Below are positions 1-64,000 of a stretch of DNA of 64,000 nucleotides, one piece after another (position 1 is the stretch's first letter; the number at the start of each line of letters is the position of its first letter). The notes below the pieces were generated by a model. It worked only from the letters and a program-made list of their open reading frames with translations. It was not told where the DNA came from and did no database searches. The translations under genes and the position numbers were made by a program. The DNA comes from Eledone cirrhosa (Eukaryota). Where the stretch lies: positions 7,440,001-7,504,000 of the forward strand of contig OZ024742.1 in NCBI GenBank assembly GCA_964016885.1, given 5' to 3'.

Positions 1-3000
1 TGACTTTCTCTGTAACTGTCACAGTTTCTACGACTTTCTCTGTAACTGTCATAGTTTCTACGACTTTCTCTGTAACTGTCATAGTTTCTACGACTTTCTC
101 TGAAACTGTCATAGTTTCTACGACTTTCTCTGAAACTGTCATAGTTTCTACGACTTTCTCTGTAACTGTCATAGTTTCTATGACTTTCTCTGTAACTGTC
201 ATAGTTTCTACGACTTTCTCTGAAACTGTCATAGTTTCTACGACTTTCTCTGTAACTGTCATAGTTTCTACGACTTTCTCTGTAACTGTCATAGTTTCTA
301 CGACATTTTCTGTAACTGTCATAGTTTCTACGACTTTCCCTATAACAGTCATAGTTTCTACGACTTTCTCTGTAACTGTCATAGTTTCGACGACTTTCCC
401 CATAACAGTCATAGTTTCTACGACTTTCTCTGTAACTGTCATAGTTTCTATGACATTCTCTATAACTGTCATAGTTTCTACGACTTTCTCTGTAACTGTC
501 ATAGTTTCTATGACTTTCTCTATAACTGTCATAGTTTCTACGACTTTCTCTGTAACTGTCATAGTTTCTACAACTTTCTCTGTAAGTGTCATAGTTTCTA
601 CGACATTCTCAGTAACTGTCATAGTTTCTACGACTTTCCCTATAACAGTCATAGTTTCTACGACTTTCTCTGTAACTGTCATAGCGTCTATGACTTTCTC
701 TGTAACTGTCATAGTTTCTACGACTTTCTCTGTAACTGTCATAGTTTCTATGACTTTCTCTGTAACTGTCATAATTTCTACGACTTTCTCTGTAACTGTC
801 ATAGTTTCTACGACTTTCTCTGTAACTTTCATAGTTTCTATGACTTTCTCTATAACTGTCATAGTTTCTACGACTTTCTCTGTAACTGTCATAGTTTCTA
901 TGATTTTCTCTGTAACTGTCATAGTTTCTACGACATTCTCTATAACTGTCATAGTTTCTATGAATTTCTCTGTAACTGTCAGAGTGTCTACGACTTTCTC
1001 TGTAACTGTCATAGTTTCTACGACTTTCTCTGTAACTGTCATAGTTTCTATGATTTTCTCTGTAACTGTCATAGTTTCTACGACATTCTCTATAACTGTC
1101 ATAGTTTCTACGACTTTCTCTGTAACTGTCATAGTTTCTATGACTTTCTCCATAACTGTCATAGTTTCTACGACTTTCTCTGTAAATGTCATAGTTTCTA
1201 CGACATTCTCTATAATTGTCATAGTTTCTACGACTTTCTCTGTAATTGTCATAGTTTCTACGACATTCTCTGTAACTGTCATAGTTTCTGTGACTTTCTC
1301 TGTAACTGTCATAGTTTCTATGACTTTCTCTATAACTGTCATAGTTTCTATGACTTTCTCTGTACCTATCATAGTTTCTAAGACTTTCTCTGTAACTGTC
1401 ATAGTTTCTACGACTTTCTCTGTAACTGTCATAGTTTCTACGACATTCTCTATAATTGTCATAGTTTCTACGACTTTCTCTGTAACTGTCATAGTTTCTA
1501 CGACATTCTCTGTAACTGTCATAGTTTCTACGACATTCTCTGTAACTGTCATAGTTTCTACGACTTTCTCTGTAACTGTCATAGTTTCTACGACTTTCTC
1601 TGTAACTGTCATAGTTTCTATGACTTTCTCTGTAACTGTCACAGTTTCTACGACATTCTCTGTAACTGTCATAGTCTCTATGACTTTCTGTGCAACTGTC
1701 ATAGTTTCTACGACTTTCCCTATAACTGTCATAGTTTCTCCGACTTTCTCTCTAACTGTCATAGTTTCTACGACAATCTCTGTAACTGTCAGAGTGTCTA
1801 CGACTTTCTCTGTAACTGTCATATTTTCTACGACTTTCTCTGTAACTGTCAGAGTGTCTACGACTTTCTCTGTAACTGTCATAGTTTCTACGACATTTTC
1901 TGTAACTGTCATAGTTTCTACGACTTTCCCTATAACTGTCATAGTTTCTACGACTTTCTCTCTAACTGTCATAGTTTCTACGACAATCTCTGTAACTGTC
2001 AGAGTGTCTACGACTTTCTCTGTAACTGTCATATTTTCTACGACTTTCTCTGTAACTGTCAGAGTGTCTACGACTTTCTCTGTAACTGTCAAAGTTTCTA
2101 CGACATTTTCTGTAACTGTCATAGTTTCTACGACTTTCTCTGTAACTGTCATAGTTTCTACGACATTTTCTGTAACTGTCATAGTTTCTACGACTTTCCC
2201 TATAACAGTCATAGTTTCTACGACTTTCTCTGTAACTGTCATAGTTTCTATGACTTTCTCTGTAACTGTCATAGTTTCTACGACTTTCTCTGTAACTGTC
2301 ATAGTTTCTATGACTTTCTCTGTAACTGTCATAGTTTCTACGACTTTCTCTGTAACTGTCATAGTTTCTACGACTTTCTCTGTAACTGTCATAGTTTCTA
2401 CGACTTTCTCTGTAACTGTCATAGTTTCTACGACTTTCTCTGTAACTGTCATAGTTTCTACGACTTTCTCTGTAACTGTCATAGTTTCTACGACTTTCTC
2501 TGTAACTGTCATAGTTTCTACGACTTTCTCTGTAACTGTCATAGTTTCTACGACTTTCTCTGTAACTGTCATAGTTTCTACGACTTTCTCTGTAACTGTC
2601 ATAGTTTCTACGACTTTCTCTGAAACTGTCATAGTTTCTACGACTTTCTCTGTAACTGTCATAGTTTCTACGACTTTCTCTGTAACTGTCATAGTTTCTA
2701 TGATTTTCCCTGTAACTGTCATAGTTTCTACGACATTCTCTATAACTGTCATAGTTTCTACGAATTTCTCTGTAACTGTCATAGTTTCTACGACTTTCTC
2801 TGTAACTGTGATAGTTTCTACGACTTTCTCTGTAACTGTCATAGTTTCTATGATTTTCTCTGTAACTGTCATAGTTTCTACGACACTCTCTATAACTGTC
2901 ATAGTTTCTACGACTTTCTCTGTAACTGTCATAGTTTCTATGACTTTCTCTATAACTGTCATAGTTTCTACGACTTTCTCTGTAACTGTCATAGTTTCTA

Positions 3001-6000
3001 CGACATTCTCTATAATTGTCATAGTTTCTACGACTTTCTCTGTAACTGTCATAGTTTCTACGACATTCTCTGTAACTGTCATAGTTTCTACGACATTCTC
3101 TGTAACTGTCATAGTTTCTACGACTTTCTCTGTAACTGTCATAGTTTCTATGATTTTTCTGTAACTGTCATAGTTTCTATGACTTTCTCTATAACTGTCA
3201 TAGTTTCTATGACTTTCTCTGTACCTATCATAGTTTCTACTACTTTCTCTGTAACTGTCATAGTTTCTACGACTTTCTCTGTAACTGTCATTGTTTCTAC
3301 GACTTTCTCTGTAACTGTCATAGTTTTTATGACTTTCCCTATAACTGTCATAGTTTCTACGACATTCTCTGTAACTGTCATAGTTTCTACGACATTCTCT
3401 GTAACTGTCATAGTTTCTACAACTTTCTCTGTAACTGTCATAGTTTCTAAGACTTTCCCTATAACTGTCATAGTTTCTACGACATTCTCAGTAACTGTCA
3501 TAGTTTCTATGACTTTCTCTATAACTGTCATAGTTTCTACGACTTTCTCTGTAACTGTCATAGTTTCTATGACTTTCTCTGTAACTGTCATAGTTTCTAC
3601 GACTTTCTCTGTAACTGTCATAGTTTCTACGACTTTCTCTGTAACTGTTATAATAGTTTCTATGACTTTCTCTGTAACTGTCATAGTTTCTACGACTTTC
3701 TCCGTAACTGTCATATTTTCTACGACTTTCTCTGTAACTGTCATAGTTTCTACGACTTTCTCCGTAACTGTCATATTTTCTACGACTTTCTCTATAACTG
3801 TCATAGTTTCTACGACTTTCTCTGTAACTGTCATAGTTTCTACGGCTTTCTCTGTAACTGTCATAGTTTCTATGATTTTCTCTGTAACTCTCATAGTTTC
3901 TACGACTTTCTCTGTAACTGTCATAGTTTCTATGACTTTCTCTGTAACTGTCATAGTTTCTACGACTTTCTCTGTAACTGTCATAGTTTCTACGACTTTC
4001 TCTATAACTGTCATAGTTTCTACGACTTTCTCTGTAACTGTCATAGTTTCTATGACTTTCTCTGTAACTTTCATAGTTTCTACAACTTTCTCTGTAACTC
4101 TCATAGTTTCTACGACTTTCTCTGTAACTGTCATAGTTTCTATGATTTTCTCTGTAACTGTCATAGTTTCTATGACTTTCTCTGTAACTGTCACAGTTTC
4201 TACGACTTTCTCTGTAACTGTCATAGTTTCTACGACTTTCTCTGTAACTGTCATAGTTTCTACGACTTTCTCTGAAACTGTCATAGTTTCTACGACTTTC
4301 TCTGTAACTGTCATAGTTTCTACGACTTTCTCTGTAACTGTCATAGTTTCTACGACATTTTCTGTAACTGTCATAGTTTCTACGACTTTCCCTATAAATG
4401 TCATAGTTTCTACGACTTTCTCGGTAACTGTCATAGTTTCGACGACTTTCTCTGTAACTGTCATAGTTTCGACGACTTTCTCTATAACTGTCATAGTTTC
4501 TACGACTTTCTCTGTAACTGTCATAGTTTCTATGACTTTCTCTATAACTGTCATAGTTTCTACGACTTTCTCTGTAACTGTCATAGTTTCTACAACTTTC
4601 TCTGTAAGTGTCATAGTTTCTACGACATTCTCAGTAACTGTCATAGTTTCTACGACTTTCCCTATAACAGTCATAGTTTCTACGACTTTCTCTGTAACTG
4701 TCATAGCGTCTATGACTTTCTCTGTAACTGTCATAGTTTCTACGACTTTCTCTGTAACTGTCATAGTTTCTATGACTTTCTCTGTAACTGTCATAATTTC
4801 TACGACTTTCTCTGTAACTGTCATAGTTTCTACGACTTTCTCTGAAACTGTCATAGTTTCTACGACTTTCTCTGTAACTTTCATAGTTTCTATGACTTTC
4901 TCTATAACTGTCATAGTTTCTACGACTTTCTCTGTAACTGTCATAGTTTCTATGATTTTCTCTGTAACTGTCATAGTTTCTACGACATTCTCTATAACTG
5001 TCATAGTTTCTACGACTTTCTCTGTAACTGTCATAGTTTCTATGACTTTCTCCATAACTGTCATAGTTTCTACGACATTCTCTGTAACTGTCATAGTTTC
5101 TACGACATTCTCTATAATTGTCATAGTTTCTACGACTTTCTCTGTAATTGTCATAGTTTCTACGACATTCTCTGTAACTGTCATAGTTTCTACGACATTC
5201 TCTGTAACTGTCATAGTTTCTGTGACTTTCTCTGTAACTGTCATAGTTTCTACGACTTTTTCTGTAATTGTCATAGTTTCTACGACATTCTCTGTAACTG
5301 TCATAGTTTCTACAACTTTCTCTGTAACTGTCATAGTTTCTGTGACTTTCTCTGTAACTGTCATAGTTTCTATGACTTTCTCTATAACTGTCATAGTTTC
5401 TATGACTTTCTCTGTACCTATCATAGTTTCTACGACTTTCTCTGTAACTGTCATAGTTTCTACGACTTTCTCTGTAACTGTCATAGTTTCTACGACTTTC
5501 TCTGTAACTGTCATAGTTTCTACGACGTTCCCTATAACTGTCATAGTTTCTACGACTTTCTCTGTAACTGTCATAGTTTCTACGACATTCTCTATAATTG
5601 TCATAGTTTCTACGACTTTCTCTGTAACTGTCATAGTTTCTACGACATTCTCTGTAACTGTCATAGTTTCTACGACATTCTCTGTAACTGTCATAGTTTC
5701 TACGACTTTCTCTGTAACTGTCATAGTTTCTACGACTTTCTCTGTAACTGTCATAGTTTCTATGACTTTCTCTGTAACTGTCACAGTTTCTACGACATTC
5801 TCTGTAACTGTCATAGTCTCTATGACTTTCTGTGCAACTGTCATAGTTTCTACGACTTTCCCTATAACTGTCATAGTTTCTCCGACTTTCTCTCTAACTG
5901 TCATAGTTTCTACGACAATCTCTGTTACTGTCAGAGTGTCTACGACTTTCTCTGTAACTGTCATATTTTCTACGACTTTCTCTGTAACTGTCAGAGTGTC

Positions 6001-8540
6001 TACGACTTTCTCTGTAACTGTCATAGTTTCTACGACATTTTCTGTAACTGTCATAGTTTCTACGACTTTCCCTATAACTGTCATAGTTTCTACGACTTTC
6101 TCTCTAACTGTCATAGTTTCTACGACAATCTCTGTAACTGTCAGAGTGTCTACGACTTTCTCTGTAACTGTCATATTTTCTACGACTTTCTCTGTAACTG
6201 TCAGAGTGTCTACGACTTTCTCTGTAACTGTCAAAGTTTCTACGACATTTTCTGTAACTGTCATAGTTTCTACGACTTTCTCTGTAACTGTCATAGTTTC
6301 TACGACATTTTCTGTAACTGTCATAGTTTCTACGACTTTCCCTATAACAGTCATAGTTTCTACGACTTTCTCTGTAACTGTCATAGTTTCTATGACTTTC
6401 TCTGTAACTGTCATAGTTTCTACGACTTTCTCTGTAACTGTCATAGTTTCTATGACTTTCTCTGTAACTGTCATAGTTTCTACGACTTTCTCTGTAACTG
6501 TCATAGTTTCTACGACTTTCTCTGAAACTGTCATAGTTTCTACGACTTTCTCTGTAACTGTCATAGTTTCTACGACTTTCTCTGTAACTGTCATAGTTTC
6601 TATGATTTTCCCTGTAACTGTCATAGTTTCTACGACATTCTCTATAACTGTCATAGTTTCTACGAATTTCTCTGTAACTGTCATAGTTTCTACGACTTTC
6701 TCTGTAACTGTGATAGTTTCTACGACTTTCTCTGTAACTGTCATAGTTTCTATGATTTTCTCTGTAACTGTCATAGTTTCTACGACACTCTCTATAACTG
6801 TCATAGTTTCTACGACTTTCTCTGTAACTGTCATAGTTTCTATGACTTTCTCTATAACTGTCATAGTTTCTACGACTTTCTCTGTAACTGTGATAGTTTC
6901 TACGACTTTCTCTGTAACTGTCATAGTTTCTATGATTTTTCTGTAACTGTCATAGTTTCTACGACATTCTCTATAATTGTCATAGTTTCTACGACATTCT
7001 CTGTAACTGTCATAGTTTCTACTACTTTCTCTGTAACTGTCATAGTTTCTACGACTTTCTCTGTAACTGTCATTGTTTCTACGACTTTCTCTGTAACTGT
7101 CATAGTTTTTATGACTTTCCCTATAACTGTCATAGTTTCTACGACATTCTCTGTAACTGTCATAGTTTCTACGACATTCTCTGTAACTGTCATAGTTTCT
7201 ACAACTTTCTCTGTAACTGTCATAGTTTCTAAGACTTTCCCTATAACTGTCATAGTTTCTACGACATTCTCAGTAACTGTCATAGTTTCTATGACTTTCT
7301 CTATAACTGTCATAGTTTCTACGACTTTCTCTGTAACTGTCATAGTTTCTATGACTTTCTCTGTAACTGTCATAGTTTCTACGACTTTCTCTGTAACTGT
7401 CATAGTTTCTACGACTTTCTCTGTAACTGTTATAATAGTTTCTATGACTTTCGCTGTAACTGTCATAGTTTCTACGACTTTCTCCGTAACTGTCATATTT
7501 TCTACGACTTTCTCTGTAACTGTCATAGTTTCTACGACTTTCTCCGTAACTGTCATATTTTCTACGACTTTCTCTATAACTGTCATAGTTTCTACGACTT
7601 TCTCTGTAACTGTCATAGTTTCTATGACTTTCTCTGTAACTGTCATAGTTTCTATGACTTTCTCTGTAACTGTCATAGTTTCTACGACTTTCTCTGTAAC
7701 TGTCATAGTTTCTACGACTTTCTCTGTAACTGTCATAGTTTCTATGACTTTCTCTGTAGCTGTCATAGTTTCTACGACATTCTCTGTAACTGTCATAGTT
7801 TCTACGACTTTCTCTGTAACTCTCATAGTTTCTACGACTTTCTCTGTAACTGTCATAGTTTCTATGACTTTCTCTGTAACTGTCATAGTTTCTACGACTT
7901 TCTCTGTAACTGTCATAGTTTCTATGACTTTCTCTATAACTGTCATAGTTTCTATGACTTTCTCTGTAGCTGTCATAGTTTCTACGACATTCTCTGTAAC
8001 TGTCATAGTTTCTACGACTTTCTCTGTAACTGTCATAGTTTCTACGACTTTCTCTGTAACTGTCATAGTTTCTATGACTTTCTCTGTAACTGTCACCTTT
8101 TCTACGACGTTCTCTGTAACTGTGATAGTTTCTATGACTTTCTCTGTAACTGCCATAGTTTCTACGACTTTCTCTGTAACTGTCATAGTTTCTACGACTT
8201 TCTCTATAACTGTCATTTTATCTATGACTTTCTCTCTAACTGTCATAGTTTCTACGACTTTCTCTGTAACTGTCATAGTTTCTACGACTTTCTCTATAAC
8301 TGTCATAGTTTCTACGACATTCTCTGTAACTGTCATAGTTTCTATGACTTTCTCTATAACTGTCATAGTTTCTACGACTTTTTCTGTAACTGTCATAGTT
8401 TCTATGACTTTCTCTATAACTGTCATAGTTTCTATGACTTTCTCTGTAACTGTCATAGTTTCTACGACTTTTTCTATAACTGTCATAGTTTCTATGACTT
8501 TCTCTATAACTGTCATAATTTCTACGACTTTCTCTATAAA
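1..8540. repeat. 30-bp minisatellite array, consensus CGACTTTCTCTGTAACTGTCATAGTTTCTA, ~285 copies visible (runs off the left edge)
   Basis: Exact 30-bp periodicity. The phase shifts only at 1-bp deletions (~3157, ~6939) and 3-bp insertions (~3650, ~7432). Confidence 0.98.
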
Positions 8541-50238: not shown

Positions 50239-50363
50239 AATATTACACACAGTAGATTGACAGCTCACGTAGAGTTTGCTCGACGGTGCCAGTTGAAATT
50301 CCAAAAGTAATCCGGAGAAAAGTAGAAAGATTTGAATGGATACAGTTTAGTTGAAAGGAATTT

Positions 50364-50415
50364 ATTATTTTTTTAATAATTTATATACATACATATATAT
50401 ACATATATAAGCATG

Positions 50416-50485
<70 letters not shown>

Positions 50486-50539
50486 TACATGCTTATATAT
50501 GTATATATATGTATGTATATAAATTATTAAAAAAATAAT
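50364..50539. repeat. ~176-bp near-perfect palindrome: 55-bp arms around a (TA)n core
   Basis: 50364-50418 (ATTATTTTTTTAATAATTTATATACATAC...AAGCATGTAA) is the reverse complement of 50485-50539. Confidence 0.92.
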
Positions 50540-50577
50540 GAATAAACAAAGAAACAGTTCCTTATATTAAAAAAAAT

Positions 50578-50719
50578 TCATTATTTTACGATCGTTTCTA
50601 GGATATATATGTGTTTGAGTTGGTATGCATATTCTATAGATCTATGTACAATATTTATACAAACTATCAGAGGGAATATACATACCTGCACATATATATG
50701 CTGTCTTCAGAAATAATGA
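50578..50719 (-). ncRNA. Type-I hammerhead ribozyme motif (minimal helix III, extended helix II), uninterrupted copy
   Basis: The minus strand reads UCAUUAUUU-CUGAAGA-[105 nt]-GAAA-C-GAUC-G-UA-AAAUAAUGA. This gives a 9-bp helix I, a complete core, a palindromic GAUC loop and a GUA cleavage triplet. Helix II is CAGCAUAUAUAUGUG/CACAUAUAUAUCCUA (13 of 15 paired). Confidence 0.78.
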
Positions 50720-51622
50720 TACTTGTTTATTGATAAGAACAAAGATTCAATACAATAGGTCTGTTTGGAAACAGGTTTTGAATTGACCAATCAGGAGATA
50801 GTGAGGGTCAAGATAGTGATATAGAATTAGGAGAACCTTAAATTATGGGTAGAGGAAGGTAGATTTCAGTTTTGGATGGAAAAGAGTATTATGAATGAAG
50901 GATTACTTTAGGGAAGAAGTAGGTCATATGTTGACCTCAGAAATAATTTTATTTGTACATTGAATAAAACCAACAAAGAACCAATATATTCTGTCTGTTT
51001 GGTAAGAGGTTTAGAATTAACCAATAGAAAGTTAATAATTGGCCAAATGGTAAAATAGTAGTAATTGAAACTTATTTTAGGGGTGAAACTAGGTCAGGTG
51101 GTCAGTAGAAGGTATACAAGCAGTTGCTGTTATAAAATAGTAATGCCAATACAAATATCTAAGGTGACCAGAGTTTTAAGATAAGGATGTTAGTGAAAAA
51201 AATACATCTATGAAAAGGATATAAAATTAATTTAATTGATGGGTATATTTATATTGATAAAATTATACTAATACATATAGATATGATAAATAAGAGTTAG
51301 ATGCAGTTGAAAAGTTCTGTTAAGGATGATGGGAGATTAAAAGAATATAAAAATGATAAAATTATTTCTGAGGTCAACATATGACCTACTTCTTCCCTAA
51401 AGTAATCCTTCATTCATAATACTCTTTTCCATCCAAAACTGAAATCTACCTTCCTCTACCCATAATTTAAGGTTCTCCTAATTCTATATCACTATCTTGA
51501 CCCTCACTATCTCCTGATTGGTCAATTCAAAACCTGTTCCCAAACAGACCTATTGTATTGAATCTTTATTCTTATCAATAAACAAGTATCATTATTTCTG
51601 AAGACAGCGGTGGATTCTGAAG

Positions 51623-51811
51623 GGCGGTGGATTGGCAGTATCGGTAGAGGGTCGGACGCCATGCTTTCAGCATAGTTACGTCCCTTTACGATCTGAGTTC
51701 AAATCCCGCCGAGGTTGACTTTGCCTTTCATCCTTACGGGGTCGATAAAATAAAGTACCAGTAATGCACTGGGTAATTGCTGGCCTTGTGCCTAAAGTAG
51801 AAACAATTATT
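51623..51811 (+). mobile_element. Full-length young SINE inserted in the right arm, with an 18-bp target-site duplication
   Basis: ATTATTTCTGAAGACAGC occurs at 51591-51608 and 51806-51823. The left arm shows the empty site once (50700-50717, reverse complement). Confidence 0.95.
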
Positions 51812-51943
51812 TCTGAAGACAGCATATATATGTGCAGGTATGTATATTCCCTCTGATAGTTTGTATAAATATTGTACATAGATCTATAGAATATGCATAC
51901 CAACTCAAACACATATATATCCTAGAAACGATCGTAAAATAAT
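51806..51943 (+). ncRNA. Second hammerhead ribozyme motif (right arm), immediately 3' of the SINE
   Basis: ATTATTT-CTGAAGA(51813-51819)...GAAA(51925-51928)-C-GATC-GTA(51934-51936)-AAATAAT. A 7-bp helix I is retained. Confidence 0.72.
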
Positions 51944-52575
51944 GAATTTTTTTTAATATAAGGAACTGTTTCTTTGTTTATTCATTATTTTTTTAATAAT
52001 TTATCTTGACTCTGTTTTCCGTTTATTTTTCACCGAAAGTAGTTTTTGAATGCATCTTCTCTTTTCATGATATCCGGATTACATTGAGTTCTTCATACGG
52101 ATTGGACACTACCGTAAACTTTTGGTAGATTTTTCTACATATGTTTGTATATATATATATATATTATGTATAAATATTTCGTATCTCCAAGGAAATACTG
52201 TTTTAGGAAGCCGTAGCTATGCAAACACCCTCTGGTGATGTCCAGCAGAAGCAAGGGGGATAACCGTCTATGCATGTCAGGCTTAACTGACCTTCGTCTG
52301 GACGGTCCCTCCCACCGCTTGCGACTGCTATGTGTGTGTGTGTATGCGTGCGCGCGTGTGTTATATTGAGTGTATGTGTATCAGTTGTTTGGTCAACACT
52401 AAAGAATTGTTATTCCACTAAGTTATTCTTACGAAGATTACCCTGAGTAGTTTCATGTGACCCCTTAATATAAAGTAGGGAGATCTCAGTCCTTCTAACT
52501 AACATATTATTTGAGAATGTTACCATGTTTTTGTTTCATGTGTTCAGCTACTTCTAATTAACTTCTATTAAAAAG

Positions 52576-55772: not shown

Positions 55773-58700
55773 TGTGATGGTGGTGGTGTATGTTGTGATG
55801 GTGGTGTTGTATGTTGTTGATGTTCCTGTTGAATGTGATAGTGGTGTTGTGATGGTGGTATTGTAGATTGTGATGGTGGTGTTGTATGTTGTGAAGGTGG
55901 TGTTGTATGTTGTGATGGTGGTGTTGTATTTTGTTGACGTTCCTGTTGAATGTGATAGTGGTGTTGTGATGGTGGTATTGTAGATTGTGATGGTGGTGTT
56001 GTATGTTGTGATGGTGGTGTTGTATGTTGTGATGGTTGTGTTGTATGTTGTTGATGTTCCTGTTGAATGTGATAGTGGTGTTGTGATGGTGGTATTGTAG
56101 ATTGTGATGGTGGTGTTGTATGTTGTGATGGTGGTGTTGTATGTTGTGATGGTAGTGTTGTAGATTGTGATGGTGGTGTTGTATGTTGTGCTGGTGGTGT
56201 TGAATGTTGTGATGGTGGTGTTGTATGTTGTGATGGTGGTGGTGTGTGTTGTGATGGTGGTGGTGTATGTTGTGATGGTGGTATTGTATGTTGTGATGGT
56301 GGTGTTGTATGTTGTGATGGTGGTGTTGTATGTTGTGATGGTGGTGCTGTATGTTGTGATGGTGGTGTTGTATGTTGTGATGGTGGTATTGTATGTTGTG
56401 ATGGTGGTGTTGTATGTTGTGATGGTGGTGTTGTATGTTGTGATGGTGGTGTTGTAGATTGTGATGGTGGTGTTGTATCTTGTAATGGTTTTGTTGTATG
56501 TTGTGATGGTGGTGTTGTATTTTGTGATGTTGGTGCTGTATGTTGTGATGGTGGTGTTGTATGTTGTGATGGTGGTGTTGTATGTTGTGATGGTGGTGTT
56601 GTATGTTGTGATAGTGGTGGTGTATGTTGTGATGGTGGTGTTGTATGTTGTGATGGTGGTGTTGTATGTTGTGATGGTGGTGTTTAATGTTGTGATGGTG
56701 GTGTTGTAGATTGTGATGGTGGTGTTGTATCTTGTAATGGTTTTGTTGTATGTTGTGATGGTGGTGTTGTATTTTGTGATGTTGGTGCTGTATGTTGTGA
56801 TGGTGGTGTTGTATGTTGTGATGGTGGTGTTGTATGTTGTGATGGTGGTGTTGTAGATTGTGACGGTGATGTTGTATGTTGTGATGGTGGTGTTGTATGT
56901 TGTGTTGGTCATGTTGTAGATTGTGATGGTGGTGTTGTATGTTGTGCTGGTGGTGGTGTATGTTGTGATGGGGGTGGTGTATGTTGTGATGGTGGTGTTG
57001 TATGTTGTGATGGTGGTGCTGTATGTTGTGATGGTGGTGCTGTATGCTGTGATGGAGGTGTTGTATGTTGTGATGGTGGTGTTGTATGTTGTGATAGTGG
57101 TGTTGTATGTTGTGATGGTGGTGTTGAATGTTGTGATGGTGGTGTTGTATGTTGCGATGGAGGTGTTGTATGTTGTGATGGTGGTGCTGTATGTTGTGAT
57201 GGTGGTATTGTATGTTGTGATGGTGGTGTTGTATGTTGTGATGGTGGTGTTGTAGGTTGTGATGGTGGTGTTGTATGTGGTGATGGTAGTGTTGTATGTT
57301 GTGATGGTGGTGTTGTATGTTGTGATGGTGGTGTTGTATGTTGTGATGGTGGTGTTGTAGGTTGTGATGTTGGTATTGTATGTTGTGATGGTGGTGTTGT
57401 ATGTTGTGATGGTGGTGTTGTATGTTGTGATGGTGGTGTTGTATGTTGTGATGGTGGTGTTGTATGTTGTGATACTGGTGTTGTATGTTGGGATGGTGGT
57501 GTTGTATGTTGTGATGGTGGTGTTGTATGTTGTGATGGTGGTGCTGTATGTTGTGATGGTGGTGTTGTATGTTGTGATGGTGGTGTTGTATGTTGTGATG
57601 GTGGTGATGTATGTTGTGATGGTGGTGATGTATGTTGTGATGGTGGTGCTGTATGTTGTGATGGTGGTGTTGTATGTTGTGATGGTGGTGTTATATGTTG
57701 TGATGGTGGTGATGTATGTTGTGATGGTGGTGATGTATGTTGTGATGGTGGTGCTGTATGTTGTGATGGTGGTGTTGTATGTTGTGATGGTGGTGTTGTA
57801 GATTGTGATGGTGGTGTTGTATGTTGTGGAGGTGGTGTTGTATGTTGTGATGGTGGTGTTGTATGTTGTGATGGTGGTGTTGTATGTTGTGATGGTGGTG
57901 TTGTATGTTGTGATGGTGATGTTGTATGTTGTGATGGTGGTGTTGTATGTTGTGATGGTGGTGTTGTATGTTGTGATGGTGGTGTTGTATGTTGTGATGG
58001 TGGTGTTGTATGTTGTGATGGTGGTGTTGTATGTTGTGATGGTGATGTTGTATGTTGTGATGGTGGTGTTGAAGATTGTGATGGTGGTGTTGAATGTTGT
58101 GATGGTGGTGTTGTATGTTGTGATGTTGGTATTGTATGTTGTGATGGTGGTGTTGTATGTTGTGCTGGGGTTTTGTATGTTGTGATAGTGGTGTTGTATG
58201 TTGTGATGGTGGTGTTGTATGTTGTGATGGTGGTGTTGTATGTTGTGATGGTGGTGTTGTATGTTGTGATGGTTGTGTTGTAAATTGTGATGGTGGTGTT
58301 GTAGATTGTGATGGTGGTGTTGTATGTGGTGATGGTAGTGTTGTATGTTGTGATAATGGTGTTGTATGTTGTGGTGGTGGTGTTGTATGTTGTGATAGTG
58401 GTGTTTTATGTTGTGATGGTGGTGTTGTATGTTGTGGTGGTGGTGTTGTATGTTGTGATGGTGGTGTTTTATGTTGTGGTGGTGGTGTTGTATGTTGTGA
58501 TGGTGTTGTTGTATGTTGTGATTGTGGTGTTGTATGTGGTGATGGTAGTGTTGTATGTTATGATGGTGGTGTTGTATGTTGTGATGTTGTTGTTGTATGT
58601 TGTGATGGTGGTGTTGTATGTTGTGATAGTGGTGGTGTATGTTGTGATGGTGGTGTTGTATGTTGTGATAGTGGTGATGGTGGTGTTGTATGTGGTGATG

Positions 58701-61700
58701 GTGGTGTTTTATGTTGTGATGGTGGTGTTGTAGATTGTGATGGTGGTGGTGTATCTTGTGATGGTTTTGTTGTATGTTGTGATGGTGGTGTTGTATTTTG
58801 TGATGGTGGTGCTGTATGTTGTGATGGTGGTGTTGTATGTTGTGATGGTGGTGTTGTATGTTGTGATGGTGGTGTTGTAGATTGTGACGGTGGTGTTGTA
58901 TGTTGTGCTGGTGGTGGTGTATGTTGTGATGGTGGTGGTGTATGTTGTGATGGTGGTGTTGTATGTTGTGATGGTGGTGCTGTATGTTGTGATGGTGGTG
59001 CTGTATGCTGTGATGGTGGTGTTGTATGTTGTGATAGTGGTGTTGTATGTTGTGATGGTGTTGTTGAATGTTGTGATGGTGGTGTTGTATGTTGTGATAG
59101 TGGTGATGTATGTTGTGATGGTGGTGTTGTATGTTGCGATGGAGGTGTTGTATGTTGTGATGGTGGTGCTGTATGTTGTGATGGTGGTATTGTATGTTGT
59201 GATGGTGGTGTTGTATGTTGTGATGGTGGTGTTGTAGGTTGTGATGGTGGTGTTGTATGTGTTGATGGTAGTGTTGTATGTTGTGATGGTGGTGTTGTAT
59301 GTTGTGATGGTGGTGTTGTATGTTGTGATGGTGGTGTTGTAGTTTGTGATGTTGGTATTGTATGTTGTGATGGTGGTGTTGTATGTTGTGATGGTGGTGT
59401 TGTATGTTGTGATGGTGGTGTTGTATGTTGTGATGGTGGTGTTGTATGTTGTGATAGTGGTGTTGTATGTTGGGATGGTGGTGTTGTATGTTGTGATGGT
59501 GGTGTTGTATGTTGTGATGGTGGAGTTGTATGTTGTGATGGTGGTGTTGTATGTTGTGATGGTGGTGCTGTATGTTGTGATGGTGGTATTGTATGTTGTG
59601 ATGGTGGTGTTGTATGTTGTGATGGTGGTGTTGTAGGTTGTGATGGTGGTGTTGTATGTGGTGATGGTAGTGTTGTATGTTGTGATGGTGGTGTTGTATG
59701 TTGTGATGGTGGTGTTGTAGGTTGTGATGTTGGTATTGTATGTTGTGATGGTGGTGTTGTATGTTGTGACGGTGGTGTTGTATGTTGTGATGGTGGTGTT
59801 GTATGCTGTGATGGTGGTGTTGTATGTTGTGATAGTGGTGTTGTATGTTGGGATGGTGGTGTTGTATGTTGTGATGGTGGTGTTGTATGTGGTGATGGTG
59901 GTGTTGTATGTTGTGATGGTGGTGTTGTATGTTGTGATGGTGGTGTTGTATGTTGTGATGGTGGTGCTGTATTTTGTGATGGTGGTGTTGTATGTTGTGA
60001 TGGTGGTGTTGTATGTTGTGGTGGTGGTGTTGTATGTTGGGATGGTGGTGTTGTATGTTGTGGTGGTGGTGATGTATGTTGTGATGGTGGTGTTGTATGT
60101 TGTGATAGTGGTGATGTATGTTGTGATGGTGGTGTTGTATGTTGTGGTCGTGGTGTTGTATGTTGTGATGGTGGTGTTGTATGTTGTGGTGGTGGTGATG
60201 TATGTTGTGATGGTGGTGTTGTATGTTGTGATAGTGGTGATGTATGTTGTGATGGTGGTGTTGTATGTTGTGATGGTGGTGCTGTATGTTGTGATGGTGG
60301 TGTTGTATGTTGTGATGGTGATGTTGTATGTTGTGATGGTGGTGTTGAAGATTGTGATGGTGGTGTTGTATGTTGTGGTGGTGGTGTTGTATGTTGTGAT
60401 GGTGGTGCTGTATGTTGTGATGGTGGTGTTGTATGTTGTGATGGTGGTGTTTTAGATTGTGATGGTGGTGTTGTATGTTGTGGTGGTTGTGTTGTATGTT
60501 TTGATGGTGGTGTTGTAGATTGTGATGGTGGTGTTGTATGTTGTGGTGGTGGTGTTGTATGTTGTGATGGTGGTGTTGTATGTTGTGATGGTGGTGTTGT
60601 ATGTTGTGATGGTGGTGTTGTATGTTGTGATAGTGGTGTTGTATGTTGTGATGGTGGTGTTGTATGTTGTGATGGTGATGTTGTATGTTATGATGGTGGT
60701 GTTGTATGTTGTGATGGTGGTGTTGTATGTTGTGATGGTGGTGTTGTATGTTGTGATGGTGGTGTTGTATGTTGTGATGGTGGTGTTGTATGTTGTGATG
60801 GTGATGTTGTATGTTGTGATGCTGGTGTTGTATGTTGTGATGGTGGTGTTGTATGTTGTGATGTTGGTATTGTATGTTGTGATGGTGGTGTTGTATGTTG
60901 TGCTGGGGTTTTGTATGTTGTGATAGTGGTGTTGTATGTTGTGATGGTGGTGTTGTAGAATGTGATGGTGGTGTTGTATGTTGTGATGGTGGTGTTGTAT
61001 GTTGTGATGGTGGTGTTGTATGTTGTGGTGGTTGTGTTGTAAATTGTGATGGTGGTGTTGTAGATTGTGATGGTGGTGTTGTATGTGGTGATGGTAGTGT
61101 TGTATGTTGTGATGATGGTGTTGTATGTTGTGATGGTGGTGTTGTACGTTGTGTTTGTGGTGTTGTATGTTGTGATGGTGGTGTTCTATGTTGTGATGGT
61201 GGTGTTGTATGTTGTGATGGTCGTGTTGATGATTGTGATGATGGTGTTGAAGATTGTGATGGTGGTGTTGTATTTTGTGATAGTTGTGTTGTATGTTGTG
61301 ATGGTGGTGTTGTATGCTGTGAGGCTGGTGGTGTATGTTGTGATGCTGGTGTTGTATATTGTGAAGATGGTGGTGTATGTTGTGATGATGGTGTTGTATG
61401 TTGTGATGGTGGTGTTGTAGATTGTGATGGTGGTGTTGTATGAGGTGATGGTAGTGTTGTATGTTGTGATGGTGGTGGTGTATGTTGTGGTGGTGGTGTT
61501 GTATGTTGTGATGGTGGTGTTTTATGTTGTGATGGTGGTGTTGTATGTTGTGATGGTGGTGTTGTATGTTGTGATGGTGGTGTTGTATGTTGTGGTGGTG
61601 GTGTTGTATGTTGTGATGGTGGTGTTTTATGTTGTGATGGTGGTGTTGTATGTTGTGGTGGTGGTGTTGTATGTTGTGATGGTGGTGTTTTATGTTGTGA

Positions 61701-64000
61701 TGATGGTGTTGTATGTTGTGATGGTGGTGTTGTATGTTGTGATGGTGGTGTTGTATGTTGTGGTGGTGGTGTTGTATGTTGTGATGGTGGTGTTTTATGT
61801 TGTGATGGTGGTGTTGTATGTTGTGGTGGTGGTGTTGTATGTTGTGATGGTGTTGTTGTATGTTGTGATTGTGGTGTTGTATGTTGTGATGGTGGTGTTT
61901 TATGTTGTGATGGTGGTGTTGTTTGTTGTAATGGTGGTGTTGTAGATTGTGATGGTGGTGTTGTAGATTGTGATGGTGGTGTTGTATGTGGTGATGGTAG
62001 TGTTGTATGTTATGATGGTGGTGTTGTATGTTGTGATGTTGGTGCTGTATGTTGTGATGGTGGTGTTGTATGTTATGATGGTGGTGTTATATGTTGTGAT
62101 GGTGGTGTTGTATGTCGTGATGGTGGTGTTGTATGTTATGATGGTGGTGTTATATGTTGTGATGGTGGTGTTGTATGTTGTGATGTTGGTATTGTATGTT
62201 GTGATGGCGGTATTGTATGTTCTGATGGTGGTGATGTATGTTGTGATGGTGGTGATGTATGTTGTGATGGTAGTGATGTATGTTGTGATGGTGGTGTTGT
62301 ATGTTGTGATGTTGGTATTGTATGTTGTGATGGTGGTGTTGTATTTTGTTATGGTGGTGATGTATGTTGTGATGGTGGTGATGTATGTTGTGATGGTGGT
62401 GTTGTATGTTGTGATGGTGGTATTGTATGTTGTGATGTTTGTGTTGTATGTTATGATGGTGGTGTTGTATGTTGTGATGGTGGTGTTGTAGATCGTGATA
62501 GTGGTGTTGTAGGTTGTGATGTTGGTATTGTATGTTGTGATGGTGGTGTTGTATGTTGTGATGGTGGTGTTGTATGTGTGATGGTGGTGTTGTATGTTGT
62601 GATTGTGGTGTTGTATTTTGTGATGGTGGTGTTGTAGATTGTTATGGTGGTGTTGTATGTTGTGATGGTGGTGTTGTATGTTGTGATGGTGGTGTTGTAT
62701 GTTGTGATGGTGGTGTTGTATGTTGTGATGGTGGTGTTTTATGTTGTGAAGGTTTTTGTTGTATGTTGTGATGGTGGTGTTGTATGTTGTGATGGTGGTG
62801 TTGAAGATTGTGATGCTGGTGTTGTAGACTCTGATGGTGGCGTTGTATGTTGTGATGGTGGTGTTGTATGTTGTGATGGTGGTGATGTAGATTGTGATGG
62901 TGGTGTTGTATGTTGTGCTGGTGGTGTTGTATGTCGTGATAGTGGTGGTGTATGTTGTGATGGTGGTGGTGTATTTTGTTATGGTGTTGTTGTATGTTGT
63001 GTTGGTGATGTTGTAGATTGTGATGGTGGTGTTGTATGTTGTGCTGGTGATGCAGTATGTTGTGATGGTGGTGTTGTAAATTGTGATGGTGATGCTGTAT
63101 GTTGTGATGGTGGTGTTGTAGATTGTGATGGTGGTGTTGTATGTTGTGATGGTGGTGTTGTAGATTGTGATGGTGGTGTTGTATGTTATGATGGTGGTGT
63201 TGTATGTTGTGATGGTGGTGTTGTATGTTGTGATGGTGGTGTTGTATGTTGTGATGGTGGTGTTGTATTTTGTGATGGTGATGCTGTATGTTGTGATGGT
63301 GGTGTTGTATGTTGTGATGGTGGTGTTGTATGTTGTGATGGTGGTGTTGTATTTTGTGATGGTGATGCTGTATGTTGTGATAGTGGTGATGGTGGTGTTG
63401 TATGTTATGATGGTGGTGTTGTATATTGTGATGGTGGTGTTGTAGATTGTGATGGTGGTGTTGTATGTTATGATGGTGGTGTTGTATGTTGTGATTGTGG
63501 TGTTGTATGTTGTGATGGTGGTGTTGTATGTTGTGATGGTGGTGTTGTATTTTGTGATGGTGATGCTGTATGTTGTGATGGTGGTGTTGTATGTTGTAAT
63601 AGTGGTGATGTATGTTGTGATGGTGGTGCTGTAGATTGTGATGGTGGTGTTGTATGTTGTGATGGTGGTGTTGTATGTTGTGATGGTGGTGTTGTAGATT
63701 GTGATGGTGATGTTGTATGTTTTGATGGTGGTGTTGTAGATTGTGATGGTGGTGTTGTATGTTATGATGGTGGTGTTGTATGTTGTGATGGTGGTGTTGT
63801 ATGTTCTGATTGTGGTGTTGAAGATTGTGGTGGTGGCGTTGTATTTTGTGATGGTGGTGTTGTATGTTGTGATGGTGGTGTTGTAGATTGTGTAGGTGGT
63901 GTTGTATGTTGTGATGGTGGTGTTGTATGTTGTGATGGTGGTGTTGTATGTTGTGATGGTGGTGATGTATGTTGTGATGTTGGTGTTGTATGTTGTTATG
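55773..64000. repeat. 21-bp minisatellite array, consensus GATGGTGGTGTTGTATGTTGT, ~390 copies visible (runs off the right edge)
   Basis: 21-bp periodicity with point variants and rare indels. Confidence 0.98.

Follow-up and report, generated by a model that had tools for sequence, protein, structure and literature searches.

We report here a type I minimal hammerhead ribozyme motif (HHR) with a helix II of 105 nt at positions 50578..50719, minus strand, of the window, the 64,000-nucleotide stretch of Eledone cirrhosa DNA analysed. The motif is not a chance occurrence: matches to its pattern in the genome lie far above those to the reversed control. Judged from its sequence, the parent is a young, high-copy Penelope-like retrotransposon (PLE) of the Hydra clade, which carries the motif in its pseudo-LTR, sense to the ORF. 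Hammerheads in PLE pseudo-LTRs, including those of Hydra elements, are already known; new is a helix II of 80-116 nt. We consider it probable that the motif is a conditionally active ribozyme, dependent on dimer formation and probably on protein, in an RNA that is mostly copied uncut, and that helix II is a conserved rod of ~100 nt. The features of the locus are as follows.

50360..50543, no strand: (TA)n microsatellite serving as the target; a local palindrome of 92 bp covers the short 3' end of the element
50519..51358, minus: pseudo-LTR, an inverted copy of the non-coding 3' end of the element, 5'-truncated and extending to the short 3' terminus
50533..50586, minus: predicted downstream hairpin (anti-helix I, 11 bp), pairing with the helix I 3' strand
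50578..50719, minus: type I minimal HHR, copy 1 (9-bp helix I, CUGAAGA, 105-nt helix II, GAAA, palindromic helix III, GUA)
50719-50711, minus: helix I 5' strand, copy 1
50710-50704, minus: CUGAAGA core box, copy 1
50703-50599, minus: helix II insert of 105 nt, copy 1; fold of -32.1 kcal/mol, z -4.7, with compensatory changes across subfamilies
from 50598, minus: GAAA core box, copy 1
50595-50588, minus: self-complementary helix III octamer ACGAUCGU, copy 1, invariant in 27/27 aligned sequences
50587, minus: H17 = A, copy 1
50586-50578, minus: helix I 3' strand, copy 1
51356..52140, plus: the same 3' end in direct orientation, 5'-truncated, including a tail of ~137 nt at 52005-52140
51609..51805, plus: SINE within copy 2, interrupting the helix I 5' strand
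51806..51945, plus: HHR copy 2, core at 51813-51936; core and helix II identical to copy 1
52263-52310, minus: degenerate minimal hammerhead with a short (15-nt) arm, from another PLE family

The original prediction, made from the sequence of the window, was of a complete hammerhead with a 9-bp helix I and a helix II of ~105 nt, and all of its parts were located at these minus-strand positions. Copy 1 contains the conserved HHR core, namely C3-A9 (CUGANGA), G12-A14, A15.1-U16.1 and H17, and the predicted cut lies between 50587 and 50586 (minus strand), after the GUA cleavage triplet. In the predicted fold three helices surround the core and helix I is open, as in type I hammerheads, and the short palindromic helix III would permit the dimer fold of the type I minimal form; ACGAUCGU forms 2 bp and a tetraloop in a monomer, and 8 bp between two molecules in a dimer. 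The octamer and the parent element thus bear out the assignment to the type I hammerheads of PLE pseudo-LTRs with a minimal palindromic helix III. Helix II begins at its base with a C.A mismatch, followed by 2 bp and a 1x1 loop; above these come stems of 11 bp and 13 bp, and a 3+7-bp hairpin forms the apex. Folding of the reverse complement, as had been proposed, gave a stable structure for the 156-nt region (-37.0 kcal/mol, z -4.61, with 0/200 shuffles equally good). The predicted probabilities of the pairs in helices I and II are mostly 0.7-1.0, and that of the 2-bp monomer helix III is 0.05.

It had also been anticipated that so long a helix II would escape length-limited searches, and this proved correct. 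The published descriptor allows a stem II of 3-7 bp and a loop of 3-10 nt, with ~26 nt between the core boxes (PMC4209133), about one-quarter of the length of the arm here. A search of Rfam gave no hammerhead match at E<=1 on the whole window, nor at E<=10 on 50500-52400. The Rfam matches were only AT-repeat miRNA noise, and a miRNA reading was rejected.

Genome-wide, we used a tight core pattern, consisting of three helix I pairs and both core boxes, with the reversed pattern as control. For a helix II of 70-130 nt, there were 12,060 matches vs 2 in the control, divided between arms of 70-100 nt (1,641 vs 2) and 101-130 nt (10,419 vs 0); those listed mostly belong to the clan of the window copy, clan A. 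Arms of 125-155 nt gave only 261 matches vs 30, and the 100 listed are, by reading, mostly local duplications; arms therefore stop near 116 nt. A pattern with a different palindrome and a 70-100-nt arm gave 2,258 matches vs 9, partly overlapping the 1,641. With arms of 40-69 nt there were 10,078 matches vs 322. The latter cores (L161-L190) form mostly one diverse clan with rods of 58-63 nt and many changes, some head to head, and no link to a PLE ORF was found in the 30 small loci.

Long arms also occur in unrelated PLE families of this genome, at 80-95 nt. Families D (90-nt arm) and F (81-83 nt) are preceded, 445-522 nt upstream, by Hydra-type endonuclease domains that are only 40-45% identical to that of clan A; the arms of families B and C are 36 and 15 nt long. 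An endonuclease tree of 19 rows, built without published references, was weakly resolved, with 2/16 inner branches starred, and placed clan A with family F at 89/90. Family D is young and abundant (at least 733 candidates, with ~99% identity among the best 40) and combines a 90-nt helix II with only 1 bp of helix I (L140:4419-4560, L051-L065). A stretch within helix II is the complement of 7 nt of its post-cleavage strand, and the two could form a pseudoknot. Further families have a helix II of 83-95 nt (L077:820-945, L138:7091-7216, L147:1038-1175), in which branching is predicted, with a three-way junction inside the arm.

A DNA search of the 3.0-Gb genome with the locus yielded 413 candidates, and the best 40 of the 413, when scored, gave 41 matches of 98-100%. 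Two loci, L034 and L156, have the arrangement HHR-ORF-HHR in a single orientation. The ORF of L156, a sister subfamily with ~90% protein identity, is intact at 813 aa between two same-sense HHR copies. By motif reading it is a single ORF in which RT is followed by a GIY-YIG endonuclease at the C-terminus, as in the Hydra clade, and contains RWR, SDKT, YRDD, a CxCX5C linker (CNCRNKTNC), a GIY-YIG-type YIG, CxxC (CRLC) and CxH (CNH), and no CCHH. The RWK-like, DKT, CxCX5C, CxxC and CxH motifs and the lack of CCHH are as set out for Hydra-clade PLEs in section 11 of PMC8557442. A Pfam search with this ORF gave no match; by eye, the start of the protein resembles that of the octopus family Hydra-1_Obim. 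The element also inserts into (TA)n, forms partial tandems and inverted copies and carries a tail, as Hydra-clade elements do. The distance from HHR to HHR, 4.7 kb in L034 and 6.45 kb in L156, exceeds the usual <3 kb of Hydra elements because of a long microsatellite-rich 3' UTR. In full elements, the HHR lies ~300 nt upstream of the ATG, long pseudo-LTR sequence is present also upstream of the 5' HHR, and the ~137-nt tail runs on into the 5' UTR.

In the window, the short 3' terminus of the inverted copy (50519) lies 68 nt past the predicted cleavage site. The plus-strand copy 2, absent from the earlier prediction, has a helix I shortened to 7 bp by the SINE insertion. A DNA-transposon or MITE reading of the inverted repeats was rejected, as their arms correspond to the 3' end of an element that encodes RT, and their inner junctions are variable. 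Nor are these non-LTR retrozymes, which are short non-coding tandem repeats with an HHR in each; the copies here are dispersed, inverted or flanking an ORF.

The base of helix II carries C.A at 10.1/11.1, on which grounds this copy had been suspected to be weak or dead. This suspicion was not upheld. C.A is present in 30/30 of the closest loci and in 106/111 distinct clan sequences, with U-A in 4, C.C in 1 and G-C in 0, and it is found beside the intact ORF; it is the state of the whole family, and therefore not a lesion of the window copy. The G10.1-C11.1 pair, usual but not absolute for HHRs, is thus absent, and unrelated families have A.A, U.U or C.A at this position. Mismatches here are also in print: U.U is common among published Hydra HHRs and PLE-X1_cBra has C.A (PMC8557442 File S2), U.U was found to be tolerated (PMC3088659), and the 2014 descriptor permits an extra N10 and N11 (PMC4209133).

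Selection on the pairing of helix II has moderate support. The arm folds in 8/8 representatives of clan A subfamilies, with z of -4.0 to -7.1, and in all eight is more stable on the sense than on the antisense strand; the arms of seven other families have z of -0.5 to -4.5. We aligned 27 sequences, comprising 25/41 non-redundant sequences, the window copy and L149, and left out 11 with internal deletions or duplications, 4 of other families and copy 2, the SINE-split twin of the window copy. The core is invariant in 27/27 apart from N7, the conservation among paralogues that had been expected, in a set for which the search patterns had pre-selected intact cores. With the structure taken from the window copy, 89.8% of cells are paired vs 24-57% with slid partners, and double-sided changes occupy 42 cells vs 17.3 in shuffles (0/500), counts that relatedness among the sequences inflates. 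The double changes fall at four basal pairs of helix II, with compensatory A-U to G-C replacements, and at two pairs of helix I, where U-A becomes C-G in 6/27; one subfamily has a different but paired basal stem. By contrast, on two of the five measures of covariation the alignment does no better than the shuffles: there is no excess in the number of doubly changed pairs (9 vs 8.4, 231/500) or in pair types (32 vs 32.3, 338/500). RNAalifold on a plain MAFFT alignment did not recover the structure and returned an unrelated weak fold of -3.3 kcal/mol.

In silico, the proposed dimer geometry is preferred. When two copies of the 148-nt motif are folded together, the hammerhead with an 8-bp intermolecular helix III and helix I in trans is the dimer MFE, at -85.4 kcal/mol vs -70.6 (2 x -35.3) for the monomers, and the hammerhead-shaped monomer is predicted 1.7 kcal/mol above its MFE. 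The partner sequence of helix I occurs a second time, 45 nt past the cut, and an anti-helix-I hairpin is predicted in 8/8 subfamily representatives. In all eight, the predicted probability of helix I falls from 0.42-0.94 to 0.00-0.31 once the 68-nt tail is added. For dimers with the tail, an inactive fold (-98.0 kcal/mol) is 3.6 kcal/mol more stable than the hammerhead fold (-94.4). The hairpin is AU-rich with a modest z (-0.8 to -3.2) and is stronger on the sense strand in 6/6. On these predictions, it would out-compete helix I and switch the hammerhead off.

The ends of genomic insertions argue against cut RNA as the usual template. The 3' ends fall into two classes, ~62-78 nt and 196-209 nt past the cut site; among 125 distinct flanks, 58 have the short and 39 the long end, 6 continue to the ORF and 22 are unclassified. 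All short and long ends lie downstream of the cut site, and the template therefore was no linear RNA whose end the ribozyme had made. Among ~12,000 genomic copies, 5' ends do not peak at the cut site, where we found 66 matches (13/30 inspected being true junctions) vs 19 at a control position 5 nt upstream (9/10 inspected). In a count of 57 distinct clan copies, in which head-to-head pairs were counted twice and some loci were hand-picked, 24 start inside the helix I 5' strand, and for 12 of these 24 the start is exactly 7 nt ahead of C3.

The motif shares with the min-HHRs of PLEs (Cervera and de la Pena 2014, PMC4209133) the type I topology, the CUGANGA/GAAA/UH core, the palindromic helix III, the sense location in the pLTR, close opposite-strand pairs and the truncation of most copies. 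It differs from those described there in the absence of a G10.1-C11.1 pair, in a longer helix I (9-10 bp) and in a helix II of 80-116 nt vs 7-8 bp at most. With Hydra-clade PLEs as described by Craig et al. (2021, PMC8557442), the element has in common a C-terminal GIY-YIG, RWK-like, DKT and CxCX5C motifs without CCHH, (TA)n targets, inverted 5'-truncated copies, a tail, an HHR near the 3' end and a frequent 10.1/11.1 mismatch. Its arm exceeds the 3-7-bp stems II and 3-10-nt loops of the Hydra HHRs listed in Files S1-S2, and the longest arm in File S2 is ~52 nt (PLE-X1_sMoe). Furthermore, the repeat unit is 4.7-6.5 kb vs <3 kb, and the tail ~137 nt vs 30-40 nt, for Hydra elements in that account.

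Poseidon PAc of Anolis carolinensis (Frangieh et al. 2024, PMC11167929) resembles the element in having two 3' termini past the HHR that define a tail, an ATT-containing hot spot in its own pLTR and no footprint of cut RNA. It belongs to another PLE clade, and its HHR overlaps the start of the ORF instead of lying ~300 nt before the ATG; PAc was assayed. Core halves farther apart than the descriptor allows are also a property of the 'HHR_half_core' Naiads (Craig et al. 2021, PMC8557442), at 35-50 nt. The Naiads have an N-terminal endonuclease and, in that description, no full HHR model was made of them; the present motif has both halves, helix I and a palindromic helix III in complete form, with a spacer of twice the length. 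We found neither a helix II of 80-116 nt nor a downstream competing hairpin in the PLE-hammerhead or octopus/cephalopod literature, and longer arms have possibly been described elsewhere.

The conditional, dimer- and protein-dependent reading that we favour draws on published work in which monomers of PLE min-HHRs were inactive and dimers weak (PMC4209133), and cleavage by the anole PLE HHR was protein-assisted and dispensable for insertion in vitro (PMC11167929). We propose weak, conditional cutting, in the dimer and probably aided by the protein that the element encodes, because the downstream hairpin is predicted to remove helix I. Tandem or paired transcripts would pair via the 8-nt palindrome and form helix I in trans, and cleavage could take place in a short co-transcriptional window, or when protein refolds the RNA. 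Reverse transcription would likely start internally, at two tail sites of mostly uncut RNA, by analogy with the anole PLE, where two internal RT start sites define the tail (PMC11167929). We take the long arm as likely to be an extension that is tolerated yet under structural constraint, and possibly a protein-binding rod. Only tentatively would we go further and suggest that, in several PLE lineages of this genome, helix II became a functional rod of 50-116 nt bound by the RT/endonuclease, with the ribozyme gated by the conserved anti-helix-I hairpin and cutting only co-transcriptionally or on refolding by protein. If so, long-arm hammerheads would be a large overlooked class, with at least ~20,000 cores in this genome, and some PLEs reported to be without a hammerhead (the Naiad 'half cores') may belong to the long-arm type.

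A different view of the same footprints is that the motif no longer cuts, and that the retained core, palindrome and long helix II serve the retroelement as a structural signal for dimerisation, protein loading or protection of the RNA end. The non-canonical 10.1/11.1 position in 111/111 clan sequences, the abundance of family D, with at least 733 candidates and no helix I beyond a single pair, and the lack of a 5'-junction spike at the cut site are all compatible with this view, as is the finding that HHR mutants do not alter anole PLE insertion in vitro (PMC11167929). We regard it as rather doubtful. All catalytic core positions are retained across divergent families while the sequence of the arm was replaced, a retention partly built into searches that selected intact cores; helix I shows a compensatory change; and the anole motif does cleave with protein (PMC11167929). 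The long arm might instead be neutral, an AT-rich fold-back or microsatellite expansion at the DNA level whose pairing is unselected, a proposal that partly overlaps the other readings. The arm contains many TA/TG dinucleotides, and local duplications make its length vary between 80 and 116 nt; the failure of RNAalifold to recover the fold fits this account. It is nonetheless unlikely, considering the compensatory changes at the basal pairs, the subfamily with a different yet paired basal stem, G-U pairs that favour the sense strand and the limit on length near 116 nt.

At the other extreme, an efficient ribozyme could cut both pseudo-LTRs, so that unit-length RNA circularises and the circle is copied into partial tandems, the model of Cervera and de la Pena (PMC4209133). 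Helices I and II are predicted to be long and stable, helix I is predicted to form before the tail is transcribed, and 3' termini past the cut are equally compatible with a circular and an uncut template. Efficient cutting is nevertheless hard to reconcile with the long pseudo-LTR sequence upstream of the 5' HHR in full elements, with the missing junction spike that linear cut RNA would leave and with the low predicted probability of the monomer helix III. Reads of the anole PLE, moreover, neither begin nor end at the cut site (PMC11167929), and we consider this model very unlikely. The conditionally active, mostly uncut RNA thus remains our preferred reading.

For the role of hammerheads in PLEs, the element described here suits direct tests of cleavage, dimer dependence and protein assistance: it is young, has an intact ORF and >10,000 copies, and offers a natural compensatory series in its very long helix II together with a hairpin predicted to act as an on/off switch. 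In this one animal genome, tens of thousands of hammerhead cores escape descriptor and Rfam searches; genomic ribozyme counts and claims of HHR-less PLE clades therefore need re-checking.

Several smaller observations concern insertions and relics. The SINE in copy 2 is flanked by an 18-bp target duplication (51591-51608 / 51806-51823) that rebuilds the core downstream. The same SINE recurs at the same ATT site in the helix I 5' strand in L008, L037, L042, L083, L113, L144 and L160, with differing duplication lengths and three nested copies in L008, and the duplication leaves a complete core downstream. Its target base is the modal 5' junction of PLE stubs; this shared base may mark an endonuclease hot spot or the 5' end of the RNA. 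Within 50732-50717 (minus), an AATAAA lies 7 nt ahead of a TCAT at the start of helix I and is conserved across all subfamilies seen. This is a candidate poly(A) signal or initiator-like start, either of which may explain stubs that begin 7 nt before C3. The degenerate hammerhead at 52263-52310 differs in its core by two changes from the intact copies in L033, and a relic of a hammerhead 5' half, a 77% copy, is present at 50926-51025, 230 nt upstream. At L034:4470-4770, directly past the ORF stop, there are tandem CUGAUGA half-cores without a folded arm, which are diverged relics. Most of the window is occupied by satellites with 30-, 41- and 21-bp units, at 1-8539, 9682-44891 and 55773-64000.
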